This document shows positions 10,985 to 29,379 of a stretch of DNA of 64,000 bases, piece by piece. Source of the DNA: an uncultured virus (IMG/VR IMGVR_UViG_3300011912_000001) (taxonomy: Duplodnaviria; Heunggongvirae; Uroviricota; Caudoviricetes); IMG/VR virus record IMGVR_UViG_3300011912_000001. One strand, given 5' to 3'. Both the position numbers and the translations under genes were made by a program. Under the pieces are notes generated by a model. The model did no database searches. It was not told where the DNA came from and was given only the letters and a program-made list of their open reading frames with translations. Position 1 is the stretch's first letter. The number at the start of each line of letters is the position of its first letter.

Positions 10985-10986
10985 GA

Positions 10987-14167: not shown

Positions 14168-14181
14168 GGGTTTCTCCTTTC

Positions 14182-14655
14182 TTAGAGAGATAAGTTCGGT
14201 GGTTGTGTGGACTTGAATTCCATGTGAATGGATTTGAAGAAGCGGATGACGGAAGCGTGCTGATATTCTTGCATGGGTAAGAAGTCTTGTAACGCTTCTT
14301 CTAGGTCTTCAAGGGAACGGATGGGCGTGCACCGTTTCATGTCGAGGCGGGCACAGGTAGGAGTTGTTTTTTGTGTTCCGTGTTCGATGCGGGCGAACCG
14401 TTTCTTATCAAAGTGTTCTTCAGAACCAGAGGCATGCATCTGTTTGATGTAGGCAATGAGTTGTTCTTGTTCTTCGATAGTCCCTCTTGTGATACAGAAG
14501 TTTAAGTCAAAGATGTCTTCTGAGTCTCCGGCGAGCACGAGGGTACGGACTTCTTTCTTTGAAGGAATCATCGATTTCTTTTGGATGGTGACGGCGATGT
14601 AACGGGGTTGTCCTAATGGATTCCGGTATAGATAAAAGTCTCCGACTGTGAACAT
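14182..14655 (-). CDS. hypothetical, family A (FTVGDFY start, PNLSL end)
   Basis: start at MFTVGD after AAGGAAG. Confidence 0.72.
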   Translation of the reverse strand: MFTVGDFYLYRNPLGQPRYIAVTIQKKSMIPSKKEVRTLVLAGDSEDIFDLNFCITRGTIEEQEQLIAYIKQMHASGSEEHFDKKRFARIEHGTQKTTPTCARLDMKRCTPIRSLEDLEEALQDFLPMQEYQHASVIRFFKSIHMEFKSTQPPNLSL

Positions 14656-14686
14656 AGTACATCTTCCTTTCTTACGGCTAGAGTTT

Positions 14687-14770
14687 AAAAAAATCCCTAG
14701 AGAAAAGCCATCACGGATGTGTTTCTCCTTTTTTAGAAAAAGTCCCACAGGGAAGCCATCGCGGATGTGT
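14687..14770. repeat. imperfect tandem duplication (48-bp period), each copy ending in a GGATGTGT box
   Basis: aagccatcacggatgtgt at 14705 and aagccatcgcggatgtgt at 14753. Confidence 0.7.
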
Positions 14771-14784
14771 CTAGGTATGTATCA

Positions 14785-14894
14785 TAAAAAGATGGAAACA
14801 GAGCAGACGCTGTCGCGGAATAAGGAGAAGGGGAAGGCTCCTTACGCCGTGACAACGCCCGCTCCGTTGAGGACGCTGAGATAACGAATCAATC
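14785..14894 (-). ncRNA. putative long-hairpin sRNA with C-rich apical loop
   Basis: ~70-nt stem 14798-14867 with G-U pairs on the minus strand; loop CCUUCCCCUU; 3' U tract; lies directly after a hairpin element. Confidence 0.55.
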
Positions 14895-14920
14895 AAAAGA
14901 AGAGGGGCGTAGCCCCCCGC
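14891..14920 (-). promoter_or_regulatory. hairpin promoter-like element
   Basis: AATCA-N9-GGGC-GTA-GCCC-CCCGC. Confidence 0.65.
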
Positions 14921-14928
14921 CTTTGACC

Positions 14929-15528
14929 TTAAAACGCTTTGTCGCTGATGATTGGCGGAACCGTTGGAGTCTCCGTCGCACCCGCTGTTTGTTCTTGAAC
15001 CTGAGCTTGCGCTTGCGGTTGAACAGCACCAGCGCCACCTGCGCCACCTAGAGCGGCGACGAGGAGGGCGATAGTGTTAGCGTCAAGACCAGCAAGAGCG
15101 GCGAGAGCCGGATTCGCTTGAGCTTGTGCCTGAGCTTGTTGCTCGACAGAAGCTTGTTTACATTTCGAGTGAACATGTTTGAGTACTTGTGCGCGCACCG
15201 ACTGATTCAGACGGTATTCGTCACGGTATTTCTTTTCCCCGTTCTCGATGTACTCACGAGAAGGGAAGACGAGCCGGACAGAGTTCGCGTCTTGTTTCCC
15301 ACGGAAAGCTGAGAAGTAGAACGAACCAACGACAGTGTGCAATTGTACCTGACCGATGACACCGGATTTCGCTTGCGCCTCAGAAGAAGCTGGAACGATG
15401 ACGATGTTTTCGATACCTAGGTCAGCGTTAGAAGAAGCGTCTGTAGACTTTTCGTCTTGAAGATACCAGAGCGGTCCTTTTGTGTCGTTGACTTTCGATT
15501 GGTCGAGTACGAGTCCTTGGATTTGCAT
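14929..15528 (-). CDS. SpoVG-like nucleic-acid-binding protein with Q/A/G-rich tail
   Basis: VRLVFPSREYIENGEKKYRD resembles the SpoVG core. Confidence 0.55.
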   Translation of the reverse strand: MQIQGLVLDQSKVNDTKGPLWYLQDEKSTDASSNADLGIENIVIVPASSEAQAKSGVIGQVQLHTVVGSFYFSAFRGKQDANSVRLVFPSREYIENGEKKYRDEYRLNQSVRAQVLKHVHSKCKQASVEQQAQAQAQANPALAALAGLDANTIALLVAALGGAGGAGAVQPQAQAQVQEQTAGATETPTVPPIISDKAF

Positions 15529-15612
15529 GAGTAATTCCTCCTTTTAACGTCACGTGGACAATTTGTGTACCCAGAAGAACTCCCGTCACCAAAAAGGATG
15601 GAGTGTTCTCTG

Positions 15613-15642
15613 AATCAAGAAAAGAAGGGCGTAGCCCCCCGC
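15613..15642 (-). promoter_or_regulatory. hairpin promoter-like element
   Basis: AATCA-N9-GGGC-GTA-GCCC-CCCGC. Confidence 0.65.
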
Positions 15643-15671
15643 CTTTAAAAGGTTTTAGGGTTTTCCGCTTT

Positions 15672-15733
15672 TCCCTGCCATCATCAGACCTACGGAGGGT
15701 ACCCGTAGATGACGTCTCTCGACGTTTCGGCAT
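15672..15733 (-). ncRNA. type II hammerhead ribozyme
   Basis: UGCC-GAAA-CGUC(GAGA)GACG-UC^AUCUACGG(GUACCCU)CCGUAGGU-CUGAUGA-U-GGCA-GGG; predicted cleavage between 15711 and 15710. Confidence 0.85.
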
Positions 15734-15735
15734 GT

Positions 15736-15765
15736 AATCATTAAAAGAAGGACGTAGTCCCCCGC
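15736..15765 (-). promoter_or_regulatory. hairpin promoter-like element (compensatory stem GGAC/GTCC)
   Basis: AATCA-N9-GGAC-GTA-GTCC-CCCGC. Confidence 0.65.
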
Positions 15766-15767
15766 TC

Positions 15768-15983
15768 TTAAAGGTTTTCATAAAGAATGGAGCCAAAAAA
15801 GACAGTAGCGAATACTGTCATACCAATGCATTTCATCATTTCTTCGAAAGCAAAAGAGCGTTTGACGGTGTCTTTCGAGTATCGGACGCGCCACCACTTG
15901 CCTATGACAATCAAGGTTAAGCGCCACATGTTTAATAACACTACGGCATAGAATGTGACGAATAGGACCGCTAAGATGGACAT
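15768..15983 (-). CDS. small two-TM membrane protein
   Basis: two hydrophobic stretches; RBS AGGAGG. Confidence 0.65.
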   Translation of the reverse strand: MSILAVLFVTFYAVVLLNMWRLTLIVIGKWWRVRYSKDTVKRSFAFEEMMKCIGMTVFATVFFGSILYENL

Positions 15984-15994
15984 GAGGTTTCCTC

Positions 15995-16180
15995 CTACAT
16001 TTGACTGACTTTGTAGATAAAGATGATGCCGATGGCCATGACGCCACCCCATAGCAGAGAGTGGTCGATGACCCGTCTATCGATGTAAGCAATCTTCAAG
16101 AACAATGCCCCTAGAGCGATGATGCATAAACCGATAAGATACAAGAATGATTTGACGAGTTCTAGTTCATCTGATGCCAT
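15995..16180 (-). CDS. small two-TM membrane protein
   Basis: two hydrophobic stretches; RBS AAGGAGG. Confidence 0.65.
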   Translation of the reverse strand: MASDELELVKSFLYLIGLCIIALGALFLKIAYIDRRVIDHSLLWGGVMAIGIIFIYKVSQM

Positions 16181-16232
16181 GGGGATGACCTCCTTATATG
16201 TAAGGGGAGCGGGCTCGTACTCCCCGCGTACC

Positions 16233-16793
16233 TTACGCTTTTACTTCAGAAGTTTCCGCTTCTGCTTGTTTCGCTTCGAAATTTTGATTGAGCACAGAAA
16301 GCAATGATGCCATTTGCGTGCCTAGTTCTTGGAGCGTTTGTTCGTTACGAGCCATGCGTTCTTGCATGCTGTTGTCACCCGTCAGACCTTCCGGTAATTG
16401 GATGTTGATGACCGGTTGTTGGTCGGGTTTAACCGTAGAGCGTGGGTCGACTGGGTCTGCACCCATGAAGCGACGAGCCTTCTCTAAGAGAGAACCGTTC
16501 GCATACTGGTGTTCCCGGTGCTCATACGCTTGGACTTTCTTCTCGAAGTTGCGGGCTTCTTGTTTCATGCCGGCGACTTCGACAGCAGAGTGCTGGACGT
16601 CTTGGAGTTCAAGACCAATGTGAGAAGCAATTTGTTGCAAGAGGATGGCATGTCCTGCCATGTCCACTTTCAGGTTCGAGATTTCATCGTTGAAGACAGT
16701 TTTCGATACCGGGAGCATGCCACCGACACGTTGGATTAAAGGCTTGTCCTGAGGACGCTGATAATATTCTTGTACGAATTGGTTGAGTTGCAT
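16233..16793 (-). CDS. coiled-coil hypothetical protein
   Basis: ORF with RBS. Confidence 0.7.
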   Translation of the reverse strand: MQLNQFVQEYYQRPQDKPLIQRVGGMLPVSKTVFNDEISNLKVDMAGHAILLQQIASHIGLELQDVQHSAVEVAGMKQEARNFEKKVQAYEHREHQYANGSLLEKARRFMGADPVDPRSTVKPDQQPVINIQLPEGLTGDNSMQERMARNEQTLQELGTQMASLLSVLNQNFEAKQAEAETSEVKA

Positions 16794-16827
16794 GGGATAA
16801 CTTCCTTTCTAATGTGGGAGTAGTGAG

Positions 16828-16857
16828 CCCTATAAGAAGGAGGGCGTAGCCCCCCGC
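16828..16857 (-). promoter_or_regulatory. hairpin promoter-like element (CCCTA in place of AATCA)
   Basis: GGGC-GTA-GCCC-CCCGC. Confidence 0.55.
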
Positions 16858-16875
16858 TCTTAAGGTTTTAAGGTC

Positions 16876-16980
16876 TTAATGAAAAGCGAACGATAAAGTA
16901 AAGTACGCCATCGCTAATAAGCCGACGGCGATACTGATACTTTCCATGATATCGTGATAATGCGGATGTTTGCGTTTCAT
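16876..16980 (-). CDS. 34-aa membrane peptide (not in ORF track)
   Basis: MKRKHPHYHDIMESISIAVGLLAMAYFTLSFAFH; TGATG coupling with the upstream gene. Confidence 0.45.
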   Translation of the reverse strand: MKRKHPHYHDIMESISIAVGLLAMAYFTLSFAFH

Positions 16981-17348
16981 CACTGCACCACCGTCAGGAC
17001 TTTGTTGATAGCCCCTAGACGATAGCCTTGCGTGCCATCATTACGGACGTTGCCGTATGGGATGGTATTGCGGACATCAAAGCAATCGATGCAGATGTTG
17101 CCGTCATCACTGTAGACGCGGGCGAGGGCACACGTGTTCATGAATGGATTGACGACAGCATAGCTCGTGTTGTTTGGAAGGTCGAAGGCTTCCGGTGCAG
17201 TCAGCTGTAAGTCCGCCACGATTTCATAGACGCTTAACCCAAACTCTTTGATTTTAGAAAGGACAGTGGGAGTGGCGCCGACGATGACGTCTTGCCCCTC
17301 GATTGTCATAGTATCCTCGAAGTTAAAATGTTTGATAGACGTAGTCAT
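16980..17348 (-). CDS. hypothetical protein
   Basis: AAGGAG RBS. Confidence 0.7.
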   Translation of the reverse strand: MTTSIKHFNFEDTMTIEGQDVIVGATPTVLSKIKEFGLSVYEIVADLQLTAPEAFDLPNNTSYAVVNPFMNTCALARVYSDDGNICIDCFDVRNTIPYGNVRNDGTQGYRLGAINKVLTVVQ

Positions 17349-17385
17349 GATAATAGTCTCCTTTTTGTATGCGATTGAGTTATGG

Positions 17386-17889
17386 TCATTGAGTGACGCG
17401 ATGGCTTTCCACGTAGGTCTTCCACGGGAAAGTATAGCCGGGTTTCTTATTCAGGATGAGCCCACTGTAAGCGTCTTTCTGGGTTCCGTCCCATAACCAG
17501 AGTATCCAGTCACTTTCATGGATGAGCGTCCGGTTTCGTTGGTTGAGCATTTGGTATTGGTCAGAGGTCGGGTTGTCATGGATATAGAGGGCTTGCCCCC
17601 GAAGTTCCAGTTGTTCCCGCACCTTCCGCCAATCTTCTCCCTGTTTATGCCCGAAGCCCGGGAAAGGTAAGATGAGCTGAATCTGGTCGGCGTATCCGTT
17701 ATAGAATAACCATTTCATGGCACGACTGTCCCAGTGGTCCGCACACCCGATTAAGAACGTATGTCCTTGGGGTGCAAGAGCACTGAGGATGTCTTCTTGC
17801 CACTTCCAGATATCATCAAGCTTTGGGCTGTTGCGGTTGTAGTACGGATGGTGTTTCCGCATCCGCATGCCGATGACACCAATTTTCAA
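17386..17889 (-). CDS. YspA-like (DUF1273) SLOG-family protein
   Basis: KIGVIG.R, G.ADHWD, LILPF, QRNRTLIHESD.IL.LWDG. Confidence 0.7.
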   Translation of the reverse strand: MKIGVIGMRMRKHHPYYNRNSPKLDDIWKWQEDILSALAPQGHTFLIGCADHWDSRAMKWLFYNGYADQIQLILPFPGFGHKQGEDWRKVREQLELRGQALYIHDNPTSDQYQMLNQRNRTLIHESDWILWLWDGTQKDAYSGLILNKKPGYTFPWKTYVESHRVTQ

Positions 17890-18203
17890 GGGGTTTCACC
17901 TGCCTCTGCCTTCCATGAAATAAGAAGATGCGCGGGATGCGTTTGATGGACAGTGAACCCACGATAGGTCAATTGTTCCATAATGGCTTCATCGTAAGCA
18001 TGAATGTTTGAGAAAAGGAATTCATAGTCAGACAATGAGATATGGTGCGAGTATAAGCCTCGTGCGGCACGTGGCATGCAGTCCGCTATCATCTCTTCTG
18101 CGGCGTTGATGATTTTTACATTGAGTACGGCGTCCTCATGTTGTTTCTGAAGATTCCGTTCGTTTGCCATAAAACGAAAGATTTCTGCTTCTGTAGACAT
18201 CAT
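17886..18203 (-). CDS. hypothetical, family C
   Basis: AARG, RGFTV, LLISW. Confidence 0.7.
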   Translation of the reverse strand: MMSTEAEIFRFMANERNLQKQHEDAVLNVKIINAAEEMIADCMPRAARGLYSHHISLSDYEFLFSNIHAYDEAIMEQLTYRGFTVHQTHPAHLLISWKAEAGETP

Positions 18204-18221
18204 GGATATCTCTCCTCTCAT

Positions 18222-18252
18222 AATCAAGAACAGGAGGGCGTACGCCCCCCGC
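18222..18252 (-). promoter_or_regulatory. hairpin promoter-like element (GTAC loop)
   Basis: AATCA-N9-GGGC-GTAC-GCCC-CCCGC; RBS begins a few nt downstream. Confidence 0.65.
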
Positions 18253-18261
18253 TCTTTGTTC

Positions 18262-18621
18262 TTAGAATTGGGAGGAAGCGCGTATGACCGCACCCAATTC
18301 TTTGAAGACTTCTTCGAGTTCATCAGGTGTCCAATCAACATGTAAGAAGATAGAACCGGTATGGTTGTCAAGGATGACATGGGCTTTGTAGTCGAACTTA
18401 CGGAGTTCCAGCGCAACCGCCTCTAAGTTTCCTAAGCTTGCGAAGAAGTTGTTGTCAAAAGGCAAATCGCTGATAGGAACTTTCACATAGGTCATCCCTT
18501 TATTGGCTTCTGTTTCAATTAAGCCGGCAAGAGCCGTGACGATTCTTTTGGTAGCAATTTGTTTGGCACGTCGTTTCGTAGCTTCCTGTGTGATGGTGTA
18601 CATTTCCTGTGCGTTTTTCAT
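18262..18621 (-). CDS. hypothetical, family C
   Basis: MKNAQEM, EANKG, FDYKA, LHVDW. Confidence 0.7.
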   Translation of the reverse strand: MKNAQEMYTITQEATKRRAKQIATKRIVTALAGLIETEANKGMTYVKVPISDLPFDNNFFASLGNLEAVALELRKFDYKAHVILDNHTGSIFLHVDWTPDELEEVFKELGAVIRASSQF

Positions 18622-18661
18622 GAGTATCTCCTCCTTTGGGTATGTAAGAGCCAGAAGGCTC

Positions 18662-18967
18662 TTATTGGAACTGGGCTTCGTATTCCTCCTGTAGCGCATT
18701 GACCTTGATAGGGTCGAGCGGAAGAATCTCTGGAAGCAACGGCGTATGACTATAGTCAATCGTGTACGCCAATTGCATTTCCAAGATACGAGCTTTGGCG
18801 ACAGCCGAATACAACCGCTGTTCACTGTTCATACGAATGAAGTCTTGATTCTTCGCAATGAGGTCATTGACAAGACCGTTGACGACAGAGGCTAACCCGA
18901 CAGTGATGTCATCGAACTTCTTTGTGTTGTTGAGGATGTGCTGATACGCGTAGATTTGTTCTTCCAT
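18662..18967 (-). CDS. hypothetical protein
   Basis: ORF with RBS. Confidence 0.7.
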   Translation of the reverse strand: MEEQIYAYQHILNNTKKFDDITVGLASVVNGLVNDLIAKNQDFIRMNSEQRLYSAVAKARILEMQLAYTIDYSHTPLLPEILPLDPIKVNALQEEYEAQFQ

Positions 18968-19011
18968 GGATAATCTTCCTTTCTATAAGGTGAATGGCTA
19001 CAGGCACTGAG

Positions 19012-19041
19012 AATCATTAAGAGGAGGGCGTAGCCCCCCGC
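19012..19041 (-). promoter_or_regulatory. hairpin promoter-like element
   Basis: AATCA-N9-GGGC-GTA-GCCC-CCCGC. Confidence 0.65.
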
Positions 19042-19051
19042 CCTTTATCTT

Positions 19052-19255
19052 TTAAAAGAATAGATTAAGGAATAGAATGCCGAAGAATAAAACGAATTGA
19101 AGTAAGAGATTGAATCGCTGGACCTTCAAGTTCCCTTTAAGTTGTTGGCTGGTCCCATGCTCTTGAATGAGCCGAAGGGCTTTGCGGTAATTGTGTATGC
19201 TTACAATGAGGCATACGAACAACACTACTAAACAAATGATGGTGAAAGTAGACAT
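19052..19255 (-). CDS. small two-TM membrane protein
   Basis: hydrophobic ends; AAGGAGG RBS. Confidence 0.65.
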   Translation of the reverse strand: MSTFTIICLVVLFVCLIVSIHNYRKALRLIQEHGTSQQLKGNLKVQRFNLLLQFVLFFGILFLNLFF

Positions 19256-19256
19256 T

Positions 19257-19302
19257 GGATGTGTCCTCCTTTTGGATGTGTGTTCTCACTGGAGATGTGT
19301 GT
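19257..19302. promoter_or_regulatory. three GGATGTGT boxes (17/19-bp spacing)
   Basis: boxes at 19257, 19274 and 19293. Confidence 0.55.
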
Positions 19303-19306
19303 CCAT

Positions 19307-19331
19307 AAAAAAAGAGAGCCCGAAGGCCCTC
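19307..19331 (-). terminator. intrinsic terminator, cUUCGg loop
   Basis: GAGGGCC-UUCG-GGCUCUC-U7. Confidence 0.85.
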
Positions 19332-19617
19332 AATATTGTTTGAACTTAGCGTGCGTAATCATCATGTTGATGTCTTTACCTTCATGCTCATAATGAACAT
19401 CAAACCCATAAGGAATCTTATAGAAGACCTTTTCTTCTGGGTCGACAGAGACTTCGTAAAGACGCTGACCTTCGTTGTTGAAGGTAACGAGACGAATCGC
19501 GGTGATGCCCTCGTAACGGACACCATCAGCGTAGATAGCAGAGTATTCGCGCGTCTCCGTCGTATCTTCATGTGGAAGTGGTTTGATAGTAGTAGTTGGT
19601 TGGATGACAGGGTTCAT
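19330..19617 (-). CDS. hypothetical protein
   Basis: GAGGAGG RBS before MNPVI. Confidence 0.65.
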   Translation of the reverse strand: MNPVIQPTTTIKPLPHEDTTETREYSAIYADGVRYEGITAIRLVTFNNEGQRLYEVSVDPEEKVFYKIPYGFDVHYEHEGKDINMMITHAKFKQY

Positions 19618-19889
19618 GCTATTGCCTCCTCTAGGATATGGAATGTGACAATACGTTTTGATGGAATGCATGTTTCATTATATTTAACGACAGCTTCATC
19701 GAGAGGCGTGTGCCGTGTATCGACATTCCCCGCAATCGATTGCTGGCTTAAGACTTTCTTCTCAAAGTCAAAAGCGTTGATGCACGAGATATTGTTATTA
19801 ACGAATACCCCGCGCTGACCATTTTCTAACATAACTTCGACGAGCGGACGTTCTACCATTTTAGAAGAATGCGTGTCATAGAATAACAT
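19614..19889 (-). CDS. hypothetical protein
   Basis: translationally coupled on both sides. Confidence 0.6.
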   Translation of the reverse strand: MLFYDTHSSKMVERPLVEVMLENGQRGVFVNNNISCINAFDFEKKVLSQQSIAGNVDTRHTPLDEAVVKYNETCIPSKRIVTFHILEEAIA

Positions 19890-20074
19890 TAGATAGCCCC
19901 CAATTGTTTAAGAGTTTTTTTGAAACCAGCTTGACGTGCTTCGTACTGTTTCGTGAGCTCATCAATCTGAGCGTCGGTCTTCCGTTTTTCTTGGACAATC
20001 GAGTAAGCGGCGACATACATCGCAAACGTATAGAGAATAGCACCTTTAAGTAATAATTTACCAACTTTTTTCAT
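19889..20074 (-). CDS. small membrane-anchored protein
   Basis: one TM helix followed by a coiled coil. Confidence 0.6.
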   Translation of the reverse strand: MKKVGKLLLKGAILYTFAMYVAAYSIVQEKRKTDAQIDELTKQYEARQAGFKKTLKQLGAI

Positions 20075-20088
20075 AATGAATCGCTCCC

Positions 20089-20268
20089 TTAGAATAATGT
20101 ATTTAAAACGAAGATAAGACCGCCGACACCGACGAAGAAACTAGAGAAGGCTAACTTGAAACAATCGCGAAGCAGAAGGTACCGCGCAATATACGCGATA
20201 CCGACGACGTACGCACAAAACACGAGATACATGGATGCCATCATGAAGAAAAGCAATTGGTCGTTCAT
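20089..20268 (-). CDS. small two-TM membrane protein
   Basis: hydrophobic; RBS GAGGAGG. Confidence 0.6.
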   Translation of the reverse strand: MNDQLLFFMMASMYLVFCAYVVGIAYIARYLLLRDCFKLAFSSFFVGVGGLIFVLNTLF

Positions 20269-20591
20269 TTGCTTTCCTCCTCTAGGCGCCACGCTTGAGC
20301 ATATTTCTGATACTCACGAGCAACGTCTTCCCGTTTGCATGTTGCAAGTTCAACCGTATGCCAAAACTGTTTTCCTTGATAAGCCAACTTCACATCTTGC
20401 GTGATGACAGCCATATCCGTGTTCATCGTCATTTTCGGGCATAACCGTTTGATGACATGACAGCGGTGAGGCTTATCCGCTGAAGGTGGGGATTCGATGA
20501 ATTCCCCAGTTGCCGGGTTAACATTGGATGTGTATTTCCCCCGACGGAAGAATTTGTCCATTTCGACTTCCCGTTCAATTTGTTCATACAT
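20265..20591 (-). CDS. hypothetical protein
   Basis: AAGGAG RBS. Confidence 0.65.
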   Translation of the reverse strand: MYEQIEREVEMDKFFRRGKYTSNVNPATGEFIESPPSADKPHRCHVIKRLCPKMTMNTDMAVITQDVKLAYQGKQFWHTVELATCKREDVAREYQKYAQAWRLEEESK

Positions 20592-20620
20592 GTGAATCGC
20601 TCCTTTTCATATAAAGTTGT

Positions 20621-20651
20621 AATCAAAGAAAGGAGGGCTGTAGCCCCCCGC
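20621..20651 (-). promoter_or_regulatory. hairpin promoter-like element (TGTA loop)
   Basis: AATCA-N9-GGGC-TGTA-GCCC-CCCGC. Confidence 0.65.
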
Positions 20652-20653
20652 TT

Positions 20654-20836
20654 TTAATCTTGTTGATGCAGTTGTTCGAACCGAAGCGCTTGCTCCGCTT
20701 GTGCCTGTGTTTTATAGTAGCCGGACTGACGGTCATAGGGAACATCGAAGACCATGCCATCGACTTCATCTTCGCATGTCCGTCCAAGGTAATAACCAGC
20801 ATTAGAATGTAAAACTTGTAGTTCAGAAATGTTCAT
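20654..20836 (-). CDS. small conserved-looking protein (SNAGYYLG ... SGYY)
   Basis: 60 aa; RBS AAGGGGAG. Confidence 0.65.
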   Translation of the reverse strand: MNISELQVLHSNAGYYLGRTCEDEVDGMVFDVPYDRQSGYYKTQAQAEQALRFEQLHQQD

Positions 20837-20862
20837 GTAAATCTCCCCTTTGCATAGATTAG

Positions 20863-20893
20863 AATCAAGAGCAGAAGGCCGTATGGCCCCCGC
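20863..20893 (-). promoter_or_regulatory. hairpin promoter-like element (compensatory GGCC/GGCC stem)
   Basis: AATCA-N9-GGCC-GTAT-GGCC-CCCGC. Confidence 0.65.
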
Positions 20894-20906
20894 CCTTCAT
20901 CATAAA

Positions 20907-20968
20907 GGATATGTATAGCAATTGGATATGTATAGCCGAAGGATGTGTGTGGCTACTGGGGATGTGTT
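20907..20968. promoter_or_regulatory. four GGATRTGT boxes (17/17/19-bp spacing)
   Basis: boxes at 20907, 20924, 20941 and 20960. Confidence 0.6.
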
Positions 20969-20975
20969 CGGGATT

Positions 20976-21000
20976 AAAAAAAAAGGAGCCCGAAGGCCCC
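20976..21000 (-). terminator. intrinsic terminator, cUUCGg loop
   Basis: GGGGCC-UUCG-GGCUCC-U9. Confidence 0.85.
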
Positions 21001-21001
21001 A

Positions 21002-21280
21002 TTAACGCCAAGAACCAACAGGATTACCATGGTAAACGTCCCATGCGTCCATATAGGATTCATCGTATTCATCATGTGTACCGACCATGGATTCAACAGC
21101 AGTAATTGCCCATGTTCCCATTGCCCCAAAATGAGGATACCCGGGAACAAGTAATTCAGATTTATAAGACAGAAGAGCAGGATGTTGATTAGTTAAAGCA
21201 TTTGCCCGGTGGGCATCAACCAGTGTATTAATAGATAGAGCCAAGCGATGTAAACCATCAGAATAATCATATTGTAACAT
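21002..21280 (-). CDS. hypothetical protein
   Basis: likely start MLQYD, downstream of the hairpin element at 21311. Confidence 0.55.
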   Translation of the reverse strand: MLQYDYSDGLHRLALSINTLVDAHRANALTNQHPALLSYKSELLVPGYPHFGAMGTWAITAVESMVGTHDEYDESYMDAWDVYHGNPVGSWR

Positions 21281-21310
21281 TTGAACCATTCCCTTCAGTA
21301 TGAGATTATC

Positions 21311-21341
21311 AATCATATGTAGAAGGGCGGTAGCCCCCCGT
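21311..21341 (-). promoter_or_regulatory. hairpin promoter-like element (GGTA loop)
   Basis: AATCA-N9-GGGC-GGTA-GCCC-CCCG. Confidence 0.65.
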
Positions 21342-21387
21342 TTTAACATTAAATATTTACTATGTGCCGGAGGGTGAGTAAGCCCCC

Positions 21388-21419
21388 GGTCACACAATAT
21401 CCACTGGCGTAGCCCCCGC
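21388..21419 (-). promoter_or_regulatory. degenerate hairpin element
   Basis: GGC-GTA-GCC-CCCGC; AATCA absent. Confidence 0.35.
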
Positions 21420-21687
21420 ACTCCTGCGCGAGACTACACCTAAATCCCTCCTACCCGGTGGAACGGGGGAGACCTAACAATTAAGGGTAAAGCTTATGCC
21501 TCCATCAACTCCCCTGTTAGGAAGAGAGTTGATGTGTGTTGGAGGACTTGTGAACCCCTGACCGAACTCACCCCCAACACATAGGAGTGAGCACAGGAAG
21601 TCCGCCCTTTTGCTCTGAAGAAATCCAATGAGGAGTGGGCGGACTTCTATACCCGAAGGTACATCAGTTCGCATACCTCATTGAATC
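21420..21687 (-). ncRNA. putative structured ncRNA (~265 nt, at least 4 hairpins, 2 possible pseudoknots)
   Basis: UUCG hairpin 21649-21662; 11-bp stem 21597-21607/21637-21647; 9-bp stem 21503-21511/21526-21534; two 8-nt loop complementarities. Confidence 0.6.
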
Positions 21688-21714
21688 AACAAAAGAAGGG
21701 CGTATGCCCCCCGC
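21684..21714 (-). promoter_or_regulatory. hairpin promoter-like element (GTAT loop)
   Basis: AATCA-N9-GGGC-GTAT-GCCC-CCCGC. Confidence 0.65.
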
Positions 21715-21734
21715 CTTTTGCTTTTGAACTTGCC

Positions 21735-21977
21735 CTAAAAGAAGGGCAATCCATTGTCCTCTTTCGGAGGAACGAATGGTTTTTTCTTTAACCGCTCTTG
21801 CAAGCGGCGGTCGTCGGCTTCAAATGCCAACTGTACACGTTTCCGGGAAATGGCTCCCCGGTATTCCGCGTACATTCCGTTCAATTGGTGCAAGGACTTA
21901 CTTTCGTACCAGTGTAACGGGTACGGTAATACCAAACGCAATAAAGAAACAATAAACTCTCGTGACATCGTTGTCAC
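21735..21977 (-). CDS. small basic protein ending DNGLPFF
   Basis: AAAGGAG RBS; SSB-tail-like terminus. Confidence 0.6.
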   Translation of the reverse strand: MTTMSREFIVSLLRLVLPYPLHWYESKSLHQLNGMYAEYRGAISRKRVQLAFEADDRRLQERLKKKPFVPPKEDNGLPFF

Positions 21978-21993
21978 TCCTTTCTAGTTGTAG

Positions 21994-22023
21994 TACCTAA
22001 GCAAGATGGCCGTAGGCCCCCGC
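21994..22023 (-). promoter_or_regulatory. hairpin promoter-like element (GGCC-GTA-GGCC)
   Basis: compensatory stem; CCCGC flank; ACCTA in place of AATCA. Confidence 0.5.
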
Positions 22024-22090
22024 CTGTAAGGGTTTAAAACCCCTAGCCGAAGGCCCAATAGCCAACCGTATAGAAAAAGGGTGCCCACTC

Positions 22091-23179
22091 TTAATGAGTC
22101 GGCGCCCCTGTCACCGGTTTCCCTTCTGCCGCCTTCTTCACGTGCGTCGGGCGGTAATCATTGCCATCTCCCGGTTTCGAGAGACGTTGAAGCCCACCAC
22201 CGACTTCGACGGCAAGTGTCCATGGGCAGATTTGCACACACAGAGACTTGTCTTTGTACAGTGGTGTTGTCGCATCCTGCATCTTAAATGGAGAGATGCG
22301 AACATAGCCGTTGGTATCCTTCGCCACCGCACGACGGACAGCGAAAGCATTCCCCTCGACCATTACTACGCGCGTTGCAATCTTGCGTAGTTGTTGTTGC
22401 AACCGATAAGGAGAGTGAATCTTGAACGATTCCTCATACTCTTCGGTTTTGTACTTCTCGAAGTTATTCTTGCCATTAGAGAACAAGACCAACTTCATGT
22501 CTGGGAACTTAACGAGCACACTCTCCCAGATGAGGGGCATCAAGAACTCGATGCCATCTAGCTCTGCTACGTGTAACTCACGGACGCCAGCTTCCGCAAG
22601 TTTCAGAATGCCGGAGTACATGAAGACACGTAGCTTCTCCAAGTACTCTAATGATTGATGCTTATGACTCATTCGGGCACTGTTTAAAATGATACCCGGC
22701 TGAGCTGGACCAGCGATGAAGCCAGTCTGAGGATTCGGTGCCGTTTTCGGTGGCATGTTCTGCTTCACCTTATCGACAACACGAACCTCTTCTTTAATCT
22801 CCAACTTCAAAGGTTGCACCTCCTCTGGAGTTTCTGTTGCAGGTAAGTCTAGAACAAGCCCCTGCATGACTTGTTCCACTACTGGTAGAGCAGGTCGTGC
22901 AACTTCTTTCTTGACTTCCTTAATCTCCTCGTCAGGAGATGGGATTTCAAGAATCAGTGGTGCAACTTCTTCGGTCTCAGGTAATTCGAGAACCAAAGAA
23001 GCGACCTCTTTCTTCTCTGGTAAAATCGGTGTTGCAACAAACTCAGCAAACATTTCGTGTGCTTGCTGTAATTCTTGTTCTGCTAACGCAATGGCTTTTG
23101 CCATTTTGTTAACTTGTGCTTCGAAGTTGACTGCTGTTGCGTTGACTGCATAACGGTTGATTTTGTTTTGGATTTTCAT
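22091..23179 (-). CDS. protein with P/E/L-rich repeats and a divergent YspA/SLOG-like C-terminal domain
   Basis: repeated LVLELP/LILEIP/LVLDLP; LAEAGVRELHVAELDGIEF...KFPDMKLVLF. Confidence 0.6.
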   Translation of the reverse strand: MKIQNKINRYAVNATAVNFEAQVNKMAKAIALAEQELQQAHEMFAEFVATPILPEKKEVASLVLELPETEEVAPLILEIPSPDEEIKEVKKEVARPALPVVEQVMQGLVLDLPATETPEEVQPLKLEIKEEVRVVDKVKQNMPPKTAPNPQTGFIAGPAQPGIILNSARMSHKHQSLEYLEKLRVFMYSGILKLAEAGVRELHVAELDGIEFLMPLIWESVLVKFPDMKLVLFSNGKNNFEKYKTEEYEESFKIHSPYRLQQQLRKIATRVVMVEGNAFAVRRAVAKDTNGYVRISPFKMQDATTPLYKDKSLCVQICPWTLAVEVGGGLQRLSKPGDGNDYRPTHVKKAAEGKPVTGAPTH

Positions 23180-23230
23180 GATTAATTTCTCCTTTTTGTA
23201 TGTGGATTGAGTGACGGACAATGATAAAAC

Positions 23231-23255
23231 AAAAGACCCTCCGAAGAGGGCCTTC
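23231..23255 (-). terminator. intrinsic terminator, UUCG loop
   Basis: GGCCCUC-UUCG-GAGGGUC-UUUUGUUUU. Confidence 0.8.
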
Positions 23256-23260
23256 CTAAA

Positions 23261-25204
23261 TCAGATGACGAAGTTCGTGCCATCGTGACGCATACCGTCA
23301 AGCGATGACAATTCAACATCCGTCGTAAATGCAAGGTGATGCTGTCCACCTAGTACAATATAGACTTGCGTACCAAGTGGTGAGACTTTCATCTCAAACT
23401 CTTGAGTCAGCAATTGCTCCGGTGAATAGGTCTTGAGTGTTGCATCAATCACCGGTGTTGTTGCAAGAACAACAGGCTGTGGTGCCGCTTCTTCGACGTC
23501 TTCAGAAGCTGTGTCGAATAATGCATCAGCTTCTTCGGCAGGGAAAACAAACCCTTCGTCTGATGCATCGAAACCATCCCATACGTCTTGCTCTTCGACT
23601 GGAGCATCGACGACGTTTTCCTTGATGTCTTCCTCTGTAAAGACAGGTGGCTCCTCAACTGCCCGAATGTCGGACAGCTGAAGAGATAGACCTGCTTTTA
23701 CAGTGTTGTTGTAGGCTGTGACTTTCGCCACATACGAACGACCGGCTGGTAGCCACTTCATACGGTCTGCTCGTTTCTGAAGTGGGAAGAACCCACATTC
23801 AAGTTGAATCCCGACTTCGTCATTGACAGTCACAATTTCGATATCTTGATTCAAGATTCCACGTGCTGTGAGTTCAGCATGTGCTGTTGGAACCAATGCC
23901 ATGTTACCTAGCATTGGCTCGAACAAGAAATAGATTGGTTTGCTTGATGGGACGTAAACAGGAAGTTCTCCTTCTTCCCCCATCATTTTCAAAGCAAGGA
24001 CCAAGCCTTGTTCAAATGCATTCCAGAACACTGACAATCCTTCAAGACCGGACTTCTCGATGCTGTACTGCTGAACGTACATGAGCGTTGCCATCTTGAC
24101 GAGACCGTTCTCGATATCTTTCGTCCATTCATGCATCACAGAAGCGAGCTCTGTGTTCATGTCTTGGTTCAAGATAGCCAAGCGGTCTTTCTCAGCCATC
24201 GTCATGGCTTTACGCAACGCCGCGTTGCGCTTACCAGATGTTGTCATCTGGTTGTTCCAAACATCGTGTCCGATGCGAAGGCAATGCTTCTCCTTCAACT
24301 CTTGGAACGTGTAATTGCCCGTTGCTCGGTCTAACTTGAACTGGGCGTCGTTCGTTAAATTACGTTCTCCTAACATTTCTTTCGCACGTGGTTCAATCCC
24401 ACGCTTAAACGCACGGATTTGCTCCATTGCGTTATTCGAGTACGACAAGAGCGTGGCACCACGTTGTAGAAGCAACTCTTTCTCTGCCTCTGGAATTTCA
24501 AGGCGCTCTTCAAGCGCCATGAACTCTGTCAACATGTTCATGGAACGCTTAAAAGTTTGTCCAATTGCTTGAAGCTCACGGATGACGAATCCGCCGAACT
24601 CCGTGGACAACTGCACAGAAGAATGACGACGGACGACGCGTACGCCCGTTTCCATCTTCTGACCAGCAATGAATGCCGGTCGTAAGATGGGCATCTTCTC
24701 TGCTTTCACAGAGAGATGGAAGTCGACACGCTCCATTGTCTCTTGCCAGACGTTGCGATACGTCACACGTTCTTTCGGCTCGACTTCGAGCTGAGAAGTG
24801 CGGCGTACCTGTCCTTTGAAAATTTGGAACGTCACCTCGTCACGGTCTGTTTCCCATGACAAGATGTCGGAGTCGACGTCATTGTGCCACTCCATTTCCC
24901 CAGCTTCTACAAAAGTTTCAACAGCTTTGTAGAAGTCCTTCAAATCTTTTTCCGTTTGACCATGGATGAACTGCATAGTCGGACCAAACTTCGCGCGAAG
25001 TTCGGATAGAGCGACCAATACCAACTGACGTTGTGGCGAAACAACATCAGTATTTTGATACGTTGTTGCTTCCAGTGACGACACCGCCCATGCTTCTCCG
25101 TTTTCGAAGATGTTTTGTACTGCCTGTTGAGCTTCTTCGAGCGACCACACCTTATCAGCAGTGACATTAGTGTTAGTGTTGTTAGTGTTGTTAGTGTTAG
25201 ACAT
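23261..25204 (-). CDS. large hypothetical protein; candidate second (C-terminal) subunit of the RNA polymerase
   Basis: start moved to MSNTNN; adjacent to the RNAP gene; SVFWNAF motif; acidic tail. Confidence 0.6.
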   Translation of the reverse strand: MSNTNNTNNTNTNVTADKVWSLEEAQQAVQNIFENGEAWAVSSLEATTYQNTDVVSPQRQLVLVALSELRAKFGPTMQFIHGQTEKDLKDFYKAVETFVEAGEMEWHNDVDSDILSWETDRDEVTFQIFKGQVRRTSQLEVEPKERVTYRNVWQETMERVDFHLSVKAEKMPILRPAFIAGQKMETGVRVVRRHSSVQLSTEFGGFVIRELQAIGQTFKRSMNMLTEFMALEERLEIPEAEKELLLQRGATLLSYSNNAMEQIRAFKRGIEPRAKEMLGERNLTNDAQFKLDRATGNYTFQELKEKHCLRIGHDVWNNQMTTSGKRNAALRKAMTMAEKDRLAILNQDMNTELASVMHEWTKDIENGLVKMATLMYVQQYSIEKSGLEGLSVFWNAFEQGLVLALKMMGEEGELPVYVPSSKPIYFLFEPMLGNMALVPTAHAELTARGILNQDIEIVTVNDEVGIQLECGFFPLQKRADRMKWLPAGRSYVAKVTAYNNTVKAGLSLQLSDIRAVEEPPVFTEEDIKENVVDAPVEEQDVWDGFDASDEGFVFPAEEADALFDTASEDVEEAAPQPVVLATTPVIDATLKTYSPEQLLTQEFEMKVSPLGTQVYIVLGGQHHLAFTTDVELSSLDGMRHDGTNFVI

Positions 25205-25329
25205 GATTTTTCCCCTATTCTCCTGCATGTGCAGGGCCTCATACGGTATTTTCCGTCCTGTTGGCAGTAAATAATCAACAAAAAAAGAGGGCATCTCACC
25301 CCTCCACATTCGCTGTTACGATTTGATTC

Positions 25330-28300
25330 TTAGAACATACGACCCATTTTGAAGATACCTGCTTTGATATCTTCGCGGACTTTCGTTGGCGATGGAGCAT
25401 CTGTGAATACGCTGAGCACGTGTGTTAACTCACGAGCGAACGCACCACCGTGTTTTGCTTCATCGATTGCCCAACGGACAACACACGTTAACCATGTTGC
25501 GAGGTCATCGTAGAAACGACCTTCTGCAAGAAGATAACGTTGCTTCTCTGCATGCTGAAGACGAACAGCTAGTTCGTACTCTGCTTGAATCTCAAGCTGA
25601 ATGTCTTCGATGTTCATTAAACGGTTCGTCCACAAACCGATTGATGATGCTTTTGAAGTCTCGACGATGTGGAGTGCCGCCATCCGGTTGAAGACATAGT
25701 ACACGTCTTGTGGACGGTTTAGAACATCTTCTTCGTTGAATTCAAGCTCCCATGTGCGACCGTTGTTGTCTGTACGTTGTACGACTTCAAGGCCTTCTGG
25801 GATATCAACGAAGCGACGTAAATCAACTGCTTCTTTCGGTTCTGACCATGGGCAACCACCTTTTGGAGCAGACGTTCCAGAAAGGTAGAAGTCGAGGATT
25901 GGTGTCTTGTTCTCGAATGGTTCAACCATTAACGAGTTGAAGATGACGAGACACGTATCTCCATCGAAGTCAGCCCCTGACATCGCCTCTGTTGTCATGT
26001 CAACAGAGTTAAACAACACGAGTCCTTTGAAGAAGCCCATTTTCGCGGCTTTCTCATAGTAAGCTCGTGCTTCTTCTGAGCCGAACTTGTCGGTTGCGAA
26101 GACTTTACGAATCTCCTCGCGTTTCAATGCAGGATAACGTGCGGCAATGAACTCTCCTACACGTAAGTTGCCATCTGCATCGACAACGACTGCACAGCCA
26201 GCTGGAATAGACGGTACCCATTCCATCTTCGGTACTGCGACGCCTTCTTTACGTTGACGGTTGATGGACTTCACCGCTGACATCACCATGAAGATGTCAA
26301 AGCCCATATGACGCATTTTAGCGTCGTCAACCAAGACGTTACCTAATACGATTTTCTCAAGTGATTTCGTCAAGAGACTCGCAAGGCGTTGTTTCTGTAC
26401 ACCATCTTTCAGTGCACGTGGTGCTTGTTTGAGAACGGCTTTAACGCCTGTTTCTCCTTCGATGATGTCATTGAACTCTTCGTTCGCATCCAATTCTTCG
26501 AGTTTTGACTCATCGAAGTTGTCTGTAACACCAAGGAGTTTCAAAGCTTTCGATGCAGAGAACAACGATGCTTGAATCCGTCCTTTTGAAATCTGGTGAA
26601 GACGTTTGAGGTTCTTCTTCGGCGTTCCTGTCGCCAAAAGAGCCTGTGTTGCTACAGGCGCGATATCCTCTTTGAACTCTTTACGCGACCCTTGTACGAC
26701 CGCGAACTCGAAGCGTCCTTCGAGCAAAGCAGGAAGCACGTCAAGTTTCAACGCACCAGACATAAGAATCATGTCATATCCTGTTTCTTCTTTAAGCATC
26801 GGTGTACCGTATGCGAACGGTTTAACACCGGCAACACCTCGTCCTTGGAACGATTGTCCTTCATGCTCCAAAATTCCTTCAGCTACAAGGAACTGAGTGA
26901 TTTCAGGAGACACCAAGATACCACCGTCAACGAGGTTCTTTTCGAAGTCTTTTGTAACAGTAGTAATCGCCGGTTTCCCTGTCTTTTCATCCAATTTGTT
27001 GACGACTTTAGCAGTCGCACGAACAAGATGGGTAGGGTCCTCGATGATAAGGATGTTACGTTTGACGCCACCCATCATTTTATTGACAGATGTCAGCTCG
27101 ATTCCCTCTTTATCTTTGTTCTCATCATCTTGATAAGGGAAGCGGTCTGTGATTTCAAGCTGACCGAACAATTTGCCCATCACATTCGATGGACGCGAAC
27201 CAGACGCCGGCATGTCTGTACGCTTAGGGTCTTTATCCATTTTGAAGACCCGTTTGTTCATTGCTTTGTTCAATTTACCGTATTCATGCATACGATACGT
27301 TGCAACAAAGCGGCCATACACCGCAAGCGAACGTGCGGCTTCGTTGAACAAGAGTTTATGCATGTTTGCATACCCTTCTTGCTCTCCGTATTGCCAAAAT
27401 GCCGCCTCTCCCTTACGCGTTTGGGAAGGAGCCGCACTGTTCAAGGTAAAGACCTTGATTTTCTTCTGACTCTCATCAAGCAAGAGAACACCGTTCAAGA
27501 TAGTGTTCTTGATAAGAGCATCAAGCGCATCTTCCGACACTGTGCCAAATTGATTGACGACAGTACTCGATGTGAAGATGTCTGTCAGCTTCTCAACGAC
27601 AAGTGATACTTTGAGGTTGAGTTGCTTTGTGTTGTCATATCCTTCTACTTCTTGGACGATGACATCTTCCCGGTTTAACGGGTCTTTCTTTGTAATAGGG
27701 AATGTCGTTAAGACTTTCGCCGTATCACGGACAAGCATACTTTCACTGTTGCGTTGAACGAGTGTATTCTCGTTCATCACAGAATCTTCTACGCGTGTAG
27801 AACCACGTAGGAACATGAACAATTGAACCGACTCATCGATTGTCAATTGGTTCATATCATCTGTTTTCAACAGGTGCTTGAGTGTTTTAGGCTCAAGACT
27901 CGTGAACTTGCCTTTTGCATCGAAGAATGCAAGATTCACGTTATCAGCTGATAAGTTGAACGACGGTTTCTTCGGACCTGTCGTTTTCTTCAAGCCAGAC
28001 CGTTTGAACAACTCAGCAATAGAGAGTCGTCCTTTCGGTTGTTTTGCTGGTTTCGCTTTCTCAAACTTCGCTTTTGGTGCTTTTGCGAAGAATTGAATAC
28101 GAAGTGCCAACTTGTATTCTGACAAGAAGTTCGGGATTTCAACTTCTGCCATTTGCGTCAACATCAAAAGAAGTTGACGAGCACGTTTTTGAGCCGGTGC
28201 CAAGGCTGTTTGACGTGCTTGTTTGTTGTTTGCACGTCGTTCTTGCTTCTCAGCTGTTTTCATAGCCAAGACTCCTTTCTTAAGCGCTTTCTCTGCGCGG

Positions 28301-28443
28301 TATACACGTGCAGTAGCTTTCGCTACCTTTTTCTCGCGTTTTGAAACACGGATTGAAGCATCTTGCAATTCAGCAAGACGTGCTTTCGCTACTGCTACTT
28401 CGTTTGCCAATACGTTTACTGTTGCTGTTGTTACTGTTTTCAT
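25330..28443 (-). CDS. yonO: YonO/QDE-1-like double-psi-barrel RNA polymerase
   Basis: MSGADFDGD (DFDGD at 25957-25971), LVDGG, FQGR..GVK, ARYP, IDEAKHG; K/A-rich N-terminal extension. Confidence 0.85.
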   Translation of the reverse strand: MKTVTTATVNVLANEVAVAKARLAELQDASIRVSKREKKVAKATARVYRAEKALKKGVLAMKTAEKQERRANNKQARQTALAPAQKRARQLLLMLTQMAEVEIPNFLSEYKLALRIQFFAKAPKAKFEKAKPAKQPKGRLSIAELFKRSGLKKTTGPKKPSFNLSADNVNLAFFDAKGKFTSLEPKTLKHLLKTDDMNQLTIDESVQLFMFLRGSTRVEDSVMNENTLVQRNSESMLVRDTAKVLTTFPITKKDPLNREDVIVQEVEGYDNTKQLNLKVSLVVEKLTDIFTSSTVVNQFGTVSEDALDALIKNTILNGVLLLDESQKKIKVFTLNSAAPSQTRKGEAAFWQYGEQEGYANMHKLLFNEAARSLAVYGRFVATYRMHEYGKLNKAMNKRVFKMDKDPKRTDMPASGSRPSNVMGKLFGQLEITDRFPYQDDENKDKEGIELTSVNKMMGGVKRNILIIEDPTHLVRATAKVVNKLDEKTGKPAITTVTKDFEKNLVDGGILVSPEITQFLVAEGILEHEGQSFQGRGVAGVKPFAYGTPMLKEETGYDMILMSGALKLDVLPALLEGRFEFAVVQGSRKEFKEDIAPVATQALLATGTPKKNLKRLHQISKGRIQASLFSASKALKLLGVTDNFDESKLEELDANEEFNDIIEGETGVKAVLKQAPRALKDGVQKQRLASLLTKSLEKIVLGNVLVDDAKMRHMGFDIFMVMSAVKSINRQRKEGVAVPKMEWVPSIPAGCAVVVDADGNLRVGEFIAARYPALKREEIRKVFATDKFGSEEARAYYEKAAKMGFFKGLVLFNSVDMTTEAMSGADFDGDTCLVIFNSLMVEPFENKTPILDFYLSGTSAPKGGCPWSEPKEAVDLRRFVDIPEGLEVVQRTDNNGRTWELEFNEEDVLNRPQDVYYVFNRMAALHIVETSKASSIGLWTNRLMNIEDIQLEIQAEYELAVRLQHAEKQRYLLAEGRFYDDLATWLTCVVRWAIDEAKHGGAFARELTHVLSVFTDAPSPTKVREDIKAGIFKMGRMF

Positions 28444-28550
28444 GATTAATTACCCCTTTCAATTTGCGTAAGTGCGCCCACGATGTCGTAGTTTAAGGTC
28501 CTCGCCAAGACCGAATCATTTATATAAACTTCTCTTAATAAGAGAAGGGC

Positions 28551-29165: not shown

Positions 29166-29212
29166 GAGGAATTACCCCTTTCGTCCGCATCCGGTTTCTC
29201 CGGCTTATTGGA

Positions 29213-29375: not shown

Positions 29376-29379
29376 CTGC

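Follow-up and report, generated by a model that had tools for sequence, protein, structure and literature searches.

Phage-encoded structured RNAs of about 340 nucleotides (nt) are rare, and those that are understood, such as the pRNA of phage phi29, do unexpected mechanical or regulatory jobs. The loops of phi29 pRNA pair between molecules, thereby building a ring on the portal. ROOL, GOLLD, OLE and the raiA motif are large, multi-helix, pseudoknotted non-coding RNAs (ncRNAs) of bacteria and phages that were found by conservation and have no defined function. The first three form homo-oligomers (PMC12286853). Two other systems are relevant to the genomic setting, namely the promoter–terminator stem-loop (PeSL) cassettes described for T4-type phages (PMC2839356 and PMC4122927), and phage SPbeta, for which Forrest et al. 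(2017) place the start site used by YonO and an unannotated ncRNA in the yonK–yonN region. Here we analyze a locus in a 64,000-nt stretch of DNA (hereafter the window) from an uncultured virus of the Caudoviricetes (IMG/VR record IMGVR_UViG_3300011912_000001). The segment 21352–21687 of the window very probably specifies, on its minus strand, a structured RNA that is under selection. Judging from sequence comparison, we regard it as a real and new structured phage ncRNA family, which shares the general traits of ROOL, GOLLD, OLE and the raiA motif but differs in having no Rfam match to any of them, in its length (about 340 nt versus >500 nt for the first three) and in being known from only four sequences of one phage clade.

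A sequence-only reading of the window had singled out positions 21420–21687 as a folded phage ncRNA with two potential pseudoknots, and all the motifs that it listed are found when the minus strand is read. Homologues were reached through the 1037-residue product of a neighboring polymerase-like gene, which led to the syntenic IMG/VR loci L006 and L005, whose versions of this protein are 65% and 43% identical to it, respectively. L005 has a non-coding cassette at the same place (blastn, 83% identity over 133 nt, E 5e-34, window 21475–21344). A 20-mer from the conserved part of the RNA retrieved two metagenome contigs, L008, which blastn aligns with the window over 388 nt at 86% identity, and L009, which is nearly identical to L005. 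In the homologues, the RNA is likewise placed after a conserved gene of 80 codons. The comparison is thus based on four sequences that fall into two clades (the window with L008, and L005 with L009).

IMG/VR and a set of 185,579 species genomes yielded no further homologue: scans of IMG/VR with the 20-mer, a 17-mer and patterns for the first helix returned only the L005 contig, the contigs of the species genomes matched neither the DNA 20-mer nor the polymerase alignment, and this alignment yielded no IMG/VR locus beyond L005 and L006. No homologue appeared when 50,697 phage records were searched by megablast and blastn, the single hit being a 22-nt chance match; the DNA of window positions 20000–24000 is not shared with any published phage searched, tblastn of the 1037- and 682-residue neighbors against phages gave no match, and a related-locus search with the 376-residue neighbor found none. 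One other candidate from the 20-mer search of metagenome contigs, L010, was rejected: its DNA is unrelated and G+C-rich, and the 21-nt match is due to chance.

The RNA comprises a 5' pseudoknot domain, a middle domain (hairpins P3 and P4) and a 126-nt 3' domain (hairpins P5–P7). Nucleotide 1, at 21687, is the G of GAUUCAAUGAGG, which constitutes the 5' strand of helix P1 (21676–21687) and forms 12 base pairs (bp) with CCUCAUUGGAUU (21622–21633). This helix includes the complementarity noticed earlier between the 5' leader CAAUGAGG (21676–21683) and CCUCAUUG (21626–21633). The 3' strand of P1 lies within the loop closed by helix Pb, the previously reported 11-bp perfect stem, in which GAAGUCCGCCC (21637–21647) pairs with GGGCGGACUUC (21597–21607) in all four sequences. 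Both helices are well maintained: (i) in P1 (nt 1–12 with 55–66), 47 of 48 cells are paired and a G-C pair is swapped for C-G in L008; (ii) in Pb (nt 41–51 with 81–91), all 44 cells are paired, both sides being changed at 7 of the 11 positions and one side at two more. When the 3' strand is slid by 1–3 nt, P1 keeps only 12–27 of its 48 cells and Pb 13–24 of 44. P1 and Pb interleave as an H-type pseudoknot around hairpin P2 (21648–21663, stem UGUACC/GGUAUA), whose UUCG tetraloop is common to the four sequences and whose stem differs between the window and L008 in ways that preserve pairing; the cUUCGg hairpin recognized before (GUACCUUCGGGUAU, 21649–21662) is part of it. The geometry of the pseudoknot is kept (S1 of 12 bp, S2 of 11 bp, L2 of 1–3 nt and L3 of 14–16 nt), with different loop sequences. 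Since P1 and Pb share no nucleotides, both can form at the same time, as a pseudoknot, and there is no need to invoke a switch. An extension of P2 present in the minimum free energy (MFE) structure of the window (GCG.ACU with AGU.CGC) was discarded, being absent from L008 and in competition with the conserved Pb.

Hairpins P3 and P4 of the middle domain are long in both clades, with largely different sequences. P3 (21562–21596; CUG.GCUCACUCCUA with UGGGGGUGAGU.CGG) carries the apical loop UGUGU (21577–21581), and its 8 consensus pairs are 100% paired, two of them with compensatory changes; P4 (21499–21545) consists of an outer stem, a 5' internal loop ACACACA (21533–21539) and an 11-bp inner stem, and 6 of its 11 consensus pairs are compensatory. 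In the window and L008, the UGUGU loop of P3 is complementary to ACACA in the internal loop on the 5' side of P4. The P3 loop of L005 and L009 reads GUCC, and the homologous internal loop of P4 reads UGGAC, which contains the complement GGAC; the chance of finding GGAC in a random 5-mer of that composition is 0.8%. The alignment thus points to a second long-range contact, a putative loop–loop pairing of 4–5 bp that has undergone one covariation event. This is the part that stands of the second pairing proposed earlier, UGUGUUGG (21574–21581) with CCAACACA (21535–21542). The full 8-bp form was dropped: only its 5-nt core (4 nt in L005) is compatible with the conserved P3 and P4, both of which would have to open partially to accommodate the rest.

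The 3' domain, most of which lies outside the segment originally delimited, is the most constrained part of the molecule. Over P5–P7 (21472–21358), 99.4% of 176 cells are paired, as compared with 41–53% with the partners slid, and both sides are changed in three pairs and one side in five. P5 (21447–21472) displays the loop UUCCAC (21458–21463) and shows one compensatory and one one-sided change. P6 (21406–21440) is a 15-bp hairpin with a GGAG loop; its 15 pairs are 100% paired, with one compensatory and two one-sided changes. P7 (21358–21399) is a 16-bp hairpin with the 9-nt loop CUUACUCAC (21374–21382); its 16 pairs are 98.4% paired, again with one compensatory and two one-sided changes. All three loops are invariant. 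The linker GUGGA between P6 and P7 (21400–21404) is complementary to UCCAC in the P5 loop, and these five invariant pairs, which by their invariance carry no covariation support, make a third pseudoknot possible. The 3' boundary first drawn at 21420 is incorrect: it cuts P6, and the RNA runs for about 70 nt more, to about 21352. The error arose because GCGGGGGCUACGCC, the 3' strand of P6, was taken for another copy of a hairpin element repeated in the region; this strand, GGGGGCUACGCC, does resemble the element, with a 12-nt identity to four of its copies. Alignments with L008, L005 and L009 place the conserved 3' end near 21352, leaving about 13 nt before the next hairpin element, so that the RNA is about 336–343 nt long. 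A model of the 3' domain finds one copy per record (positive control G001, E 3e-30); it finds no second copy in the window or the loci and none in four cultured portal-level relatives or in SPbeta.

For the RNA as a whole, the nested consensus calculated by RNAalifold contains 81 pairs, with 99.1% of 322 cells paired versus 42.5–50.5% with the partners slid and with compensatory changes in 15 pairs versus 0–2 in the slid controls, figures that favor the consensus, as it was derived from the same four sequences, and that are inflated by their relatedness. Its covariation score was reached by none of 500 shuffles. Covariation among collected homologues had been set as a check beforehand, and it bears out the proposal of a folded phage ncRNA with two pseudoknot-type contacts, the helices of which keep pairing through compensatory changes in three homologues.

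Folding energies agree with this conclusion. The minus strand of the segment originally delimited (21420–21687) has an MFE of −107.5 kcal/mol (z −4.17; none of 200 shuffles as good), versus −88.4 kcal/mol (z −3.02) for the plus strand; for the full element (21345–21687) the values are −152.8 kcal/mol (z −6.83) on the minus strand and −117.7 kcal/mol (z −4.16) on the plus strand, a difference of 35 kcal/mol, and the sense strand of L005 gives −141 kcal/mol (z −5.86). In addition, 22 of the 176 cells of the 3' domain are G-U pairs by our own count, which become A-C mismatches on the opposite strand. These pairs and the 35 kcal/mol asymmetry led us to assign the fold to the minus strand, the sense of the neighboring genes.

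The RNA gene occupies, in the same sense as its neighbors, a 454-nt gap on the minus strand, which carries the genes in the first 30.5 kb of the window. This gap extends from the stop codon of the conserved 80-codon open reading frame (ORF; 21735–21977) to the likely start of a 92-codon ORF, the ATG at 21280, as placed by comparison with L005 and L006. Relative to the window, the 5' domain is 76% identical in L008 and 59% in L005, the middle domain 83% and 54%, and the 3' domain 99% and 81%, while the nucleotide identity of the adjacent 80-codon gene is 80% and 63%. Thus, the 5' and middle domains drift at the pace of their surroundings with their pairs kept, and the 3' domain is also held in sequence. 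The upstream 80-codon gene is constant among the relatives. The downstream gene is the 92-codon ORF in the window and L005 and a homologue of the window's 60-codon ORF (20654–20836) in L008, and this variation indicates that the RNA forms an independent cassette. L008 has about 110 extra nt with two hairpins (positions 1278–1390 of that contig) between the 3' domain and the hairpin element, which are absent from the window and L005.

The absence of any recognized class, suspected from the start, was borne out by the searches. In the Rfam 15 cmscan of the whole window, nothing matched the RNA, the only hit being a group I intron at 37554–38138; with E up to 10 over 20800–22300, the best match on the strand and span of the RNA was at chance level and none exceeded 20.3 bits. 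Rfam likewise gave nothing on the RNA in L008 and L009, and ARAGORN detected neither tRNA nor tmRNA. There was no Rfam match to 6S RNA, which is a long rod with a central bubble, whereas this RNA folds into hairpins and pseudoknots strung in a chain. Regarding antisense targets, the RNA shows no extended complementarity to the rest of the window: the longest matches outside the locus are 12 nt long (E about 1) in the 64-kb window, which is a part of a genome of about 235 kb, and four of the six are same-sense copies of the hairpin element.

How might such an RNA work? The explanation that we favor, with about even confidence, is a stand-alone ncRNA gene of about 336–343 nt, the product of which would be stable and trans-acting, with a conserved 3' domain binding a partner. 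The fast-evolving but shape-conserving 5' and middle domains would serve as a rigid, nuclease-resistant scaffold, and a 5' end base-paired from its first nucleotide in P1 would be consistent with protection from the 5'-to-3' decay of RNA in Firmicutes. The 3' domain, being invariant, would present the loops UUCCAC, GGAG and CUUACUCAC to the partner, most probably a host or phage protein, and the RNA could operate in trans as a decoy, a sequestering agent or a ribonucleoprotein scaffold during infection. That it acts in trans specifically by binding a protein is a more tentative proposal.

Public sequencing runs provide a weak hint of expression. Among the runs listed, 20 of 24 (15 studies) contain 6–18% of the sampled words of 21000–22000. 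Four were compared by contig, namely X1, X3 and X4 (DNA or probably DNA) and the metatranscriptome X12, none of which spans the whole stretch: the contigs of X1, X3 and X4 match segments of the RNA or flanking genes, and all six matched contigs of X12 fall within 21347–21699. Positions without cover in X12 or the other runs carry no evidential weight. One X12 contig, which matches 21347–21394 and 21676–21699, runs from the end of a 3' domain through a 19-nt hairpin into CCUUCUUUUGUUGAUUCAAUGAGG and continues with L005-like sequence. Judging from this junction, two RNA cassettes may lie in tandem in some relative, in which case the two clades could be paralogues.

Several observations weigh against a selected, stand-alone RNA. 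First, the X12 contigs show neither strand nor level, and the library may contain DNA. Second, no sigma-70-type promoter was seen near the RNA, and a terminator-like hairpin stands 8 nt before nt 1. Third, the number of independent events is small, with four sequences in two clades, two of them near-identical to each other, to which the circularity of the consensus noted above must be added. Fourth, in L006, which is closest to the window at the protein level (the products of the polymerase-like genes are 65% identical), a 104-codon ORF occupies the slot in place of the RNA, which is therefore dispensable or replaceable. Finally, the MFE of the full RNA in the window favors a long-range pairing between the 3' strands of P3 and P7: CUAUGUGUUGGGGGUGAGU (about 21566–21584), from the loop and 3' strand of P3, pairs with ACUCACCCUCCGGCACAUAG (about 21361–21380), from the loop and 3' strand of P7, so that neither hairpin forms locally. 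No more than about 8 nt of L005 (GGAGGGUG with CACCCUCC) are capable of this pairing, which may be an alternative conformation predicted for the window RNA, possibly a switch.

Such a switch would fit a cis-acting leader of the riboswitch or attenuator type, in which the 3' domain senses a ligand or factor and controls read-through of the hairpin at 21325–21339 into the next gene. The 3' domain does end about 13 nt before this terminator-like hairpin and a gene, its conservation is aptamer-like, and an alternative pairing, that of the P3 and P7 3' strands, is present in the window's MFE structure. However, no single gene family is coupled to the RNA, as the downstream gene of L008 is a homologue of the 60-codon ORF, and in L008 the extra 110 nt or so and their two hairpins come between the RNA and the hairpin element. 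Besides, L006 has the downstream gene without the RNA, the hairpin that follows the RNA in L005 lacks a U-tract, the same hairpin element stands before nearly every gene here, and no Rfam riboswitch matches. We therefore consider a cis-acting leader unlikely.

The covarying loop–loop complementarity leads us to keep a homo-oligomer as an option, by analogy with ROOL, GOLLD and OLE. phi29 pRNA offers another parallel: both are phage-encoded structured RNAs of Firmicute phages in which a hairpin loop and a bulge or internal loop share 4–5 covarying complementary nucleotides. If the pairing of the P3 loop with the P4 internal loop took place between molecules, as in the rings of phi29 pRNA or the cages of ROOL and GOLLD, the RNA would self-assemble into a multimeric particle displaying its invariant 3' domains on the surface. 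In the window, the two loops lie at different heights on neighboring helices, about 15 bp and about 6 bp from the helix bases. Unlike pRNA, the RNA matches no Rfam pRNA model, has about double the length and includes a conserved 3' domain that pRNA lacks, and its carrier is not a phi29-like podovirus but a jumbo phage genome with an apparent large terminase and a portal. By this analogy, a self-assembling quaternary RNA is conceivable and rather improbable. Less likely still, the RNA would be a cofactor or template of the phage's polymerase-like protein, a candidate relative of RNA-dependent RNA polymerases (RdRP) and YonO.

A ribozyme, for instance one that cleaves or processes itself at its 5' end and so frees the RNA from transcripts reading past the upstream hairpin, would explain why the 5' end abuts a terminator with no visible promoter. 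HDV-like ribozymes have a nested double pseudoknot with a conserved catalytic core and cleave 5' of a G-U pair. P1 opens at the 5' terminus with a G-U wobble (G1-U), and the architecture is pseudoknotted in the order a-b-a'-b'. But the unpaired L1, L2 and L3 of the 5' pseudoknot vary between the clades, unlike the joining regions of a catalytic core, the order of the helices (P1, hairpin, Pb, P1', Pb') is unlike that of the HDV fold, and Rfam returned no ribozyme family with E up to 10. A ribozyme is improbable overall.

The case for an element acting as DNA (a junction of recombination or of cassettes, or structured DNA resembling an origin) or for a non-functional remnant, such as a decayed gene with incidental hairpins, relies on the location of the locus in a cassette-shuffling region bounded by repeated hairpins and on the plus strand, which also beats its shuffles (z −4.16). 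It is very improbable, given that the minus strand folds better by 35 kcal/mol, that many conserved G-U pairs are strand-specific, that helices of 11–12 bp are kept by compensatory changes despite a drift to 54–59% identity, that the 3' domain is more conserved than the neighboring coding sequence, and that no frame is conserved. Last, a protein-coding gene is hardly tenable: the sole notable frame, an ATG-initiated ORF of 66 codons (21474–21674, minus strand), has a GAGG only 1 nt before its ATG, whereas the neighboring genes have AGGAG 7–9 nt upstream, is split into frames of 36 and 25 codons in L008, is absent from L005, in which only an unrelated 43-codon frame is found, and has no Pfam or PHROG match, in agreement with the original view that the region holds no credible ORF.

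As a stand-alone structured RNA, the molecule has both two long-range contacts and a 3' domain under tighter conservation than the neighboring protein gene, and its small size suits in vitro transcription, chemical probing and cryo-electron microscopy, making it a tractable new RNA fold. It also provides a handle on the early biology of an uncultivated jumbo phage clade with an unusual single-chain polymerase-like gene, and suggests that the hairpin-bounded cassettes of this phage group may carry RNA genes besides ORFs.

These hairpins belong to a repeated element with the pattern GGCGGGGGGCUACGCCC, a pyrimidine tract and UUGAUU. The copy upstream of the RNA (GGGGGGCAUACGCCCUUC, then UUUUGUUGAUU; 21695–21712) was picked up by a scan for terminator-like sites and looks like the intrinsic terminator of the 80-codon gene; as had been noticed, the RNA starts directly after it, and its first helix begins inside the GAUU tail of the element. 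The downstream copy (GGGGGGCUACCGCCC, 21325–21339), located between the RNA and the next gene, has a poor U-tract. The strict pattern gives ten copies between 14905 and 22021, all of them on the minus strand, whereas the plus strand has none, and a looser scan adds one at about 15741; the copies lie at approximately 22008, 21698, 21325, 20877, 20635, 19026, 18236, 16842, 15727, 15627 and 14905. The core pattern matches 14 times, versus 0.72 expected by chance, and the scan for terminator-like sites over 18000–24000, which includes 21695–21712, counts 20 versus 5.3 ± 2.6 in shuffles. An element precedes nearly every small gene of the region. L005 and L006 keep the elements, with compensating changes in the stem and constant spacing to UGAUU, and the cassettes between them differ among relatives (the RNA or a 104-codon ORF, and different downstream genes). 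A search of IMG/VR with a 17-mer of the element hit four loci (L001–L004), which are unrelated to the window by blastn and tblastx.

In this respect the elements are reminiscent of the PeSL of T4-type phages, in that repeated stem-loops flank small early-region genes at points of cassette swapping. They differ from PeSL by their motif (a G-rich hairpin, a pyrimidine tract and UUGAUU), by the lack of a recognizable sigma-70-type promoter part, and by the fact that one cassette here carries an RNA gene instead of an ORF. From their sequence, the elements appear terminator-like and may also have a role as promoters or in recombination; UUGAUU was rejected as a −35 box, as the copies have no conserved −10 box at 16–18 nt. 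Three other stretches of the element region stand out: 95 nt between two elements (15645–15739, minus strand) with two small hairpins and no credible ORF, and two unusually long untranslated stretches from a hairpin element to the next start codon (15529–15618 and 14749–14896). They may be further small RNA cassettes or leaders. The G+C content rises from about 0.39–0.42 over 1–14000 to about 0.44–0.49 over 14000–30000, at the start of the hairpin-element region.

The source of the window is a jumbo phage of Firmicute type, with early-type genes around the RNA. Its portal protein shares 46% identity with the one of Bacillus phage vB_BauM_KLEB27-3 and is also related to those of other Bacillus phages of about 220 kb and of a Moorella phage. 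Two IMG/VR relatives, rated 11% complete at 26 kb and 23% complete at 54 kb, imply genomes of about 235 kb. The 1037-residue protein (25330–28443, minus strand), encoded a few kb upstream of the RNA, has a sub-threshold match to the Pfam RdRP family (E 1.5e-3, 17.7 bits versus a cut-off of 23.8 bits) and an invariant ADFDGD motif. No relative was found in the 50,697 phage records or the species genomes, and a profile search of the PDB gave 0 matches; hhalign against YonO of SPbeta was not significant (E 0.12) and aligned ADFDGD with the DNDGD of YonO. The protein may be a single-chain two-barrel RNA polymerase. The proximity of a polymerase-like gene to an ncRNA is shared with SPbeta, the carrier of the single-chain RNA polymerase YonO, in which 1.68 kb without annotated coding sequence lies between yonK and yonN, downstream of yonO–yonN (L014, 9153–10833). 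The parallel stops there: SPbeta contains no match to the 3' domain model, the similarity between YonO and the polymerase-like protein is not significant, and in the yonK–yonN gap no hairpin-plus-UUGAUU element was seen and the sequence is unrelated to the RNA.

Elsewhere in the window, the group I intron mentioned above (37554–38138, plus strand; Rfam 69.2 bits, E 1.8e-15) contains a 156-codon ORF (37643–38113) and is flanked by ORFs 35857–37596 and 38165–39448, the first of which has weak matches to terminase large subunit PHROGs. From this arrangement, the intron probably splits the terminase gene.

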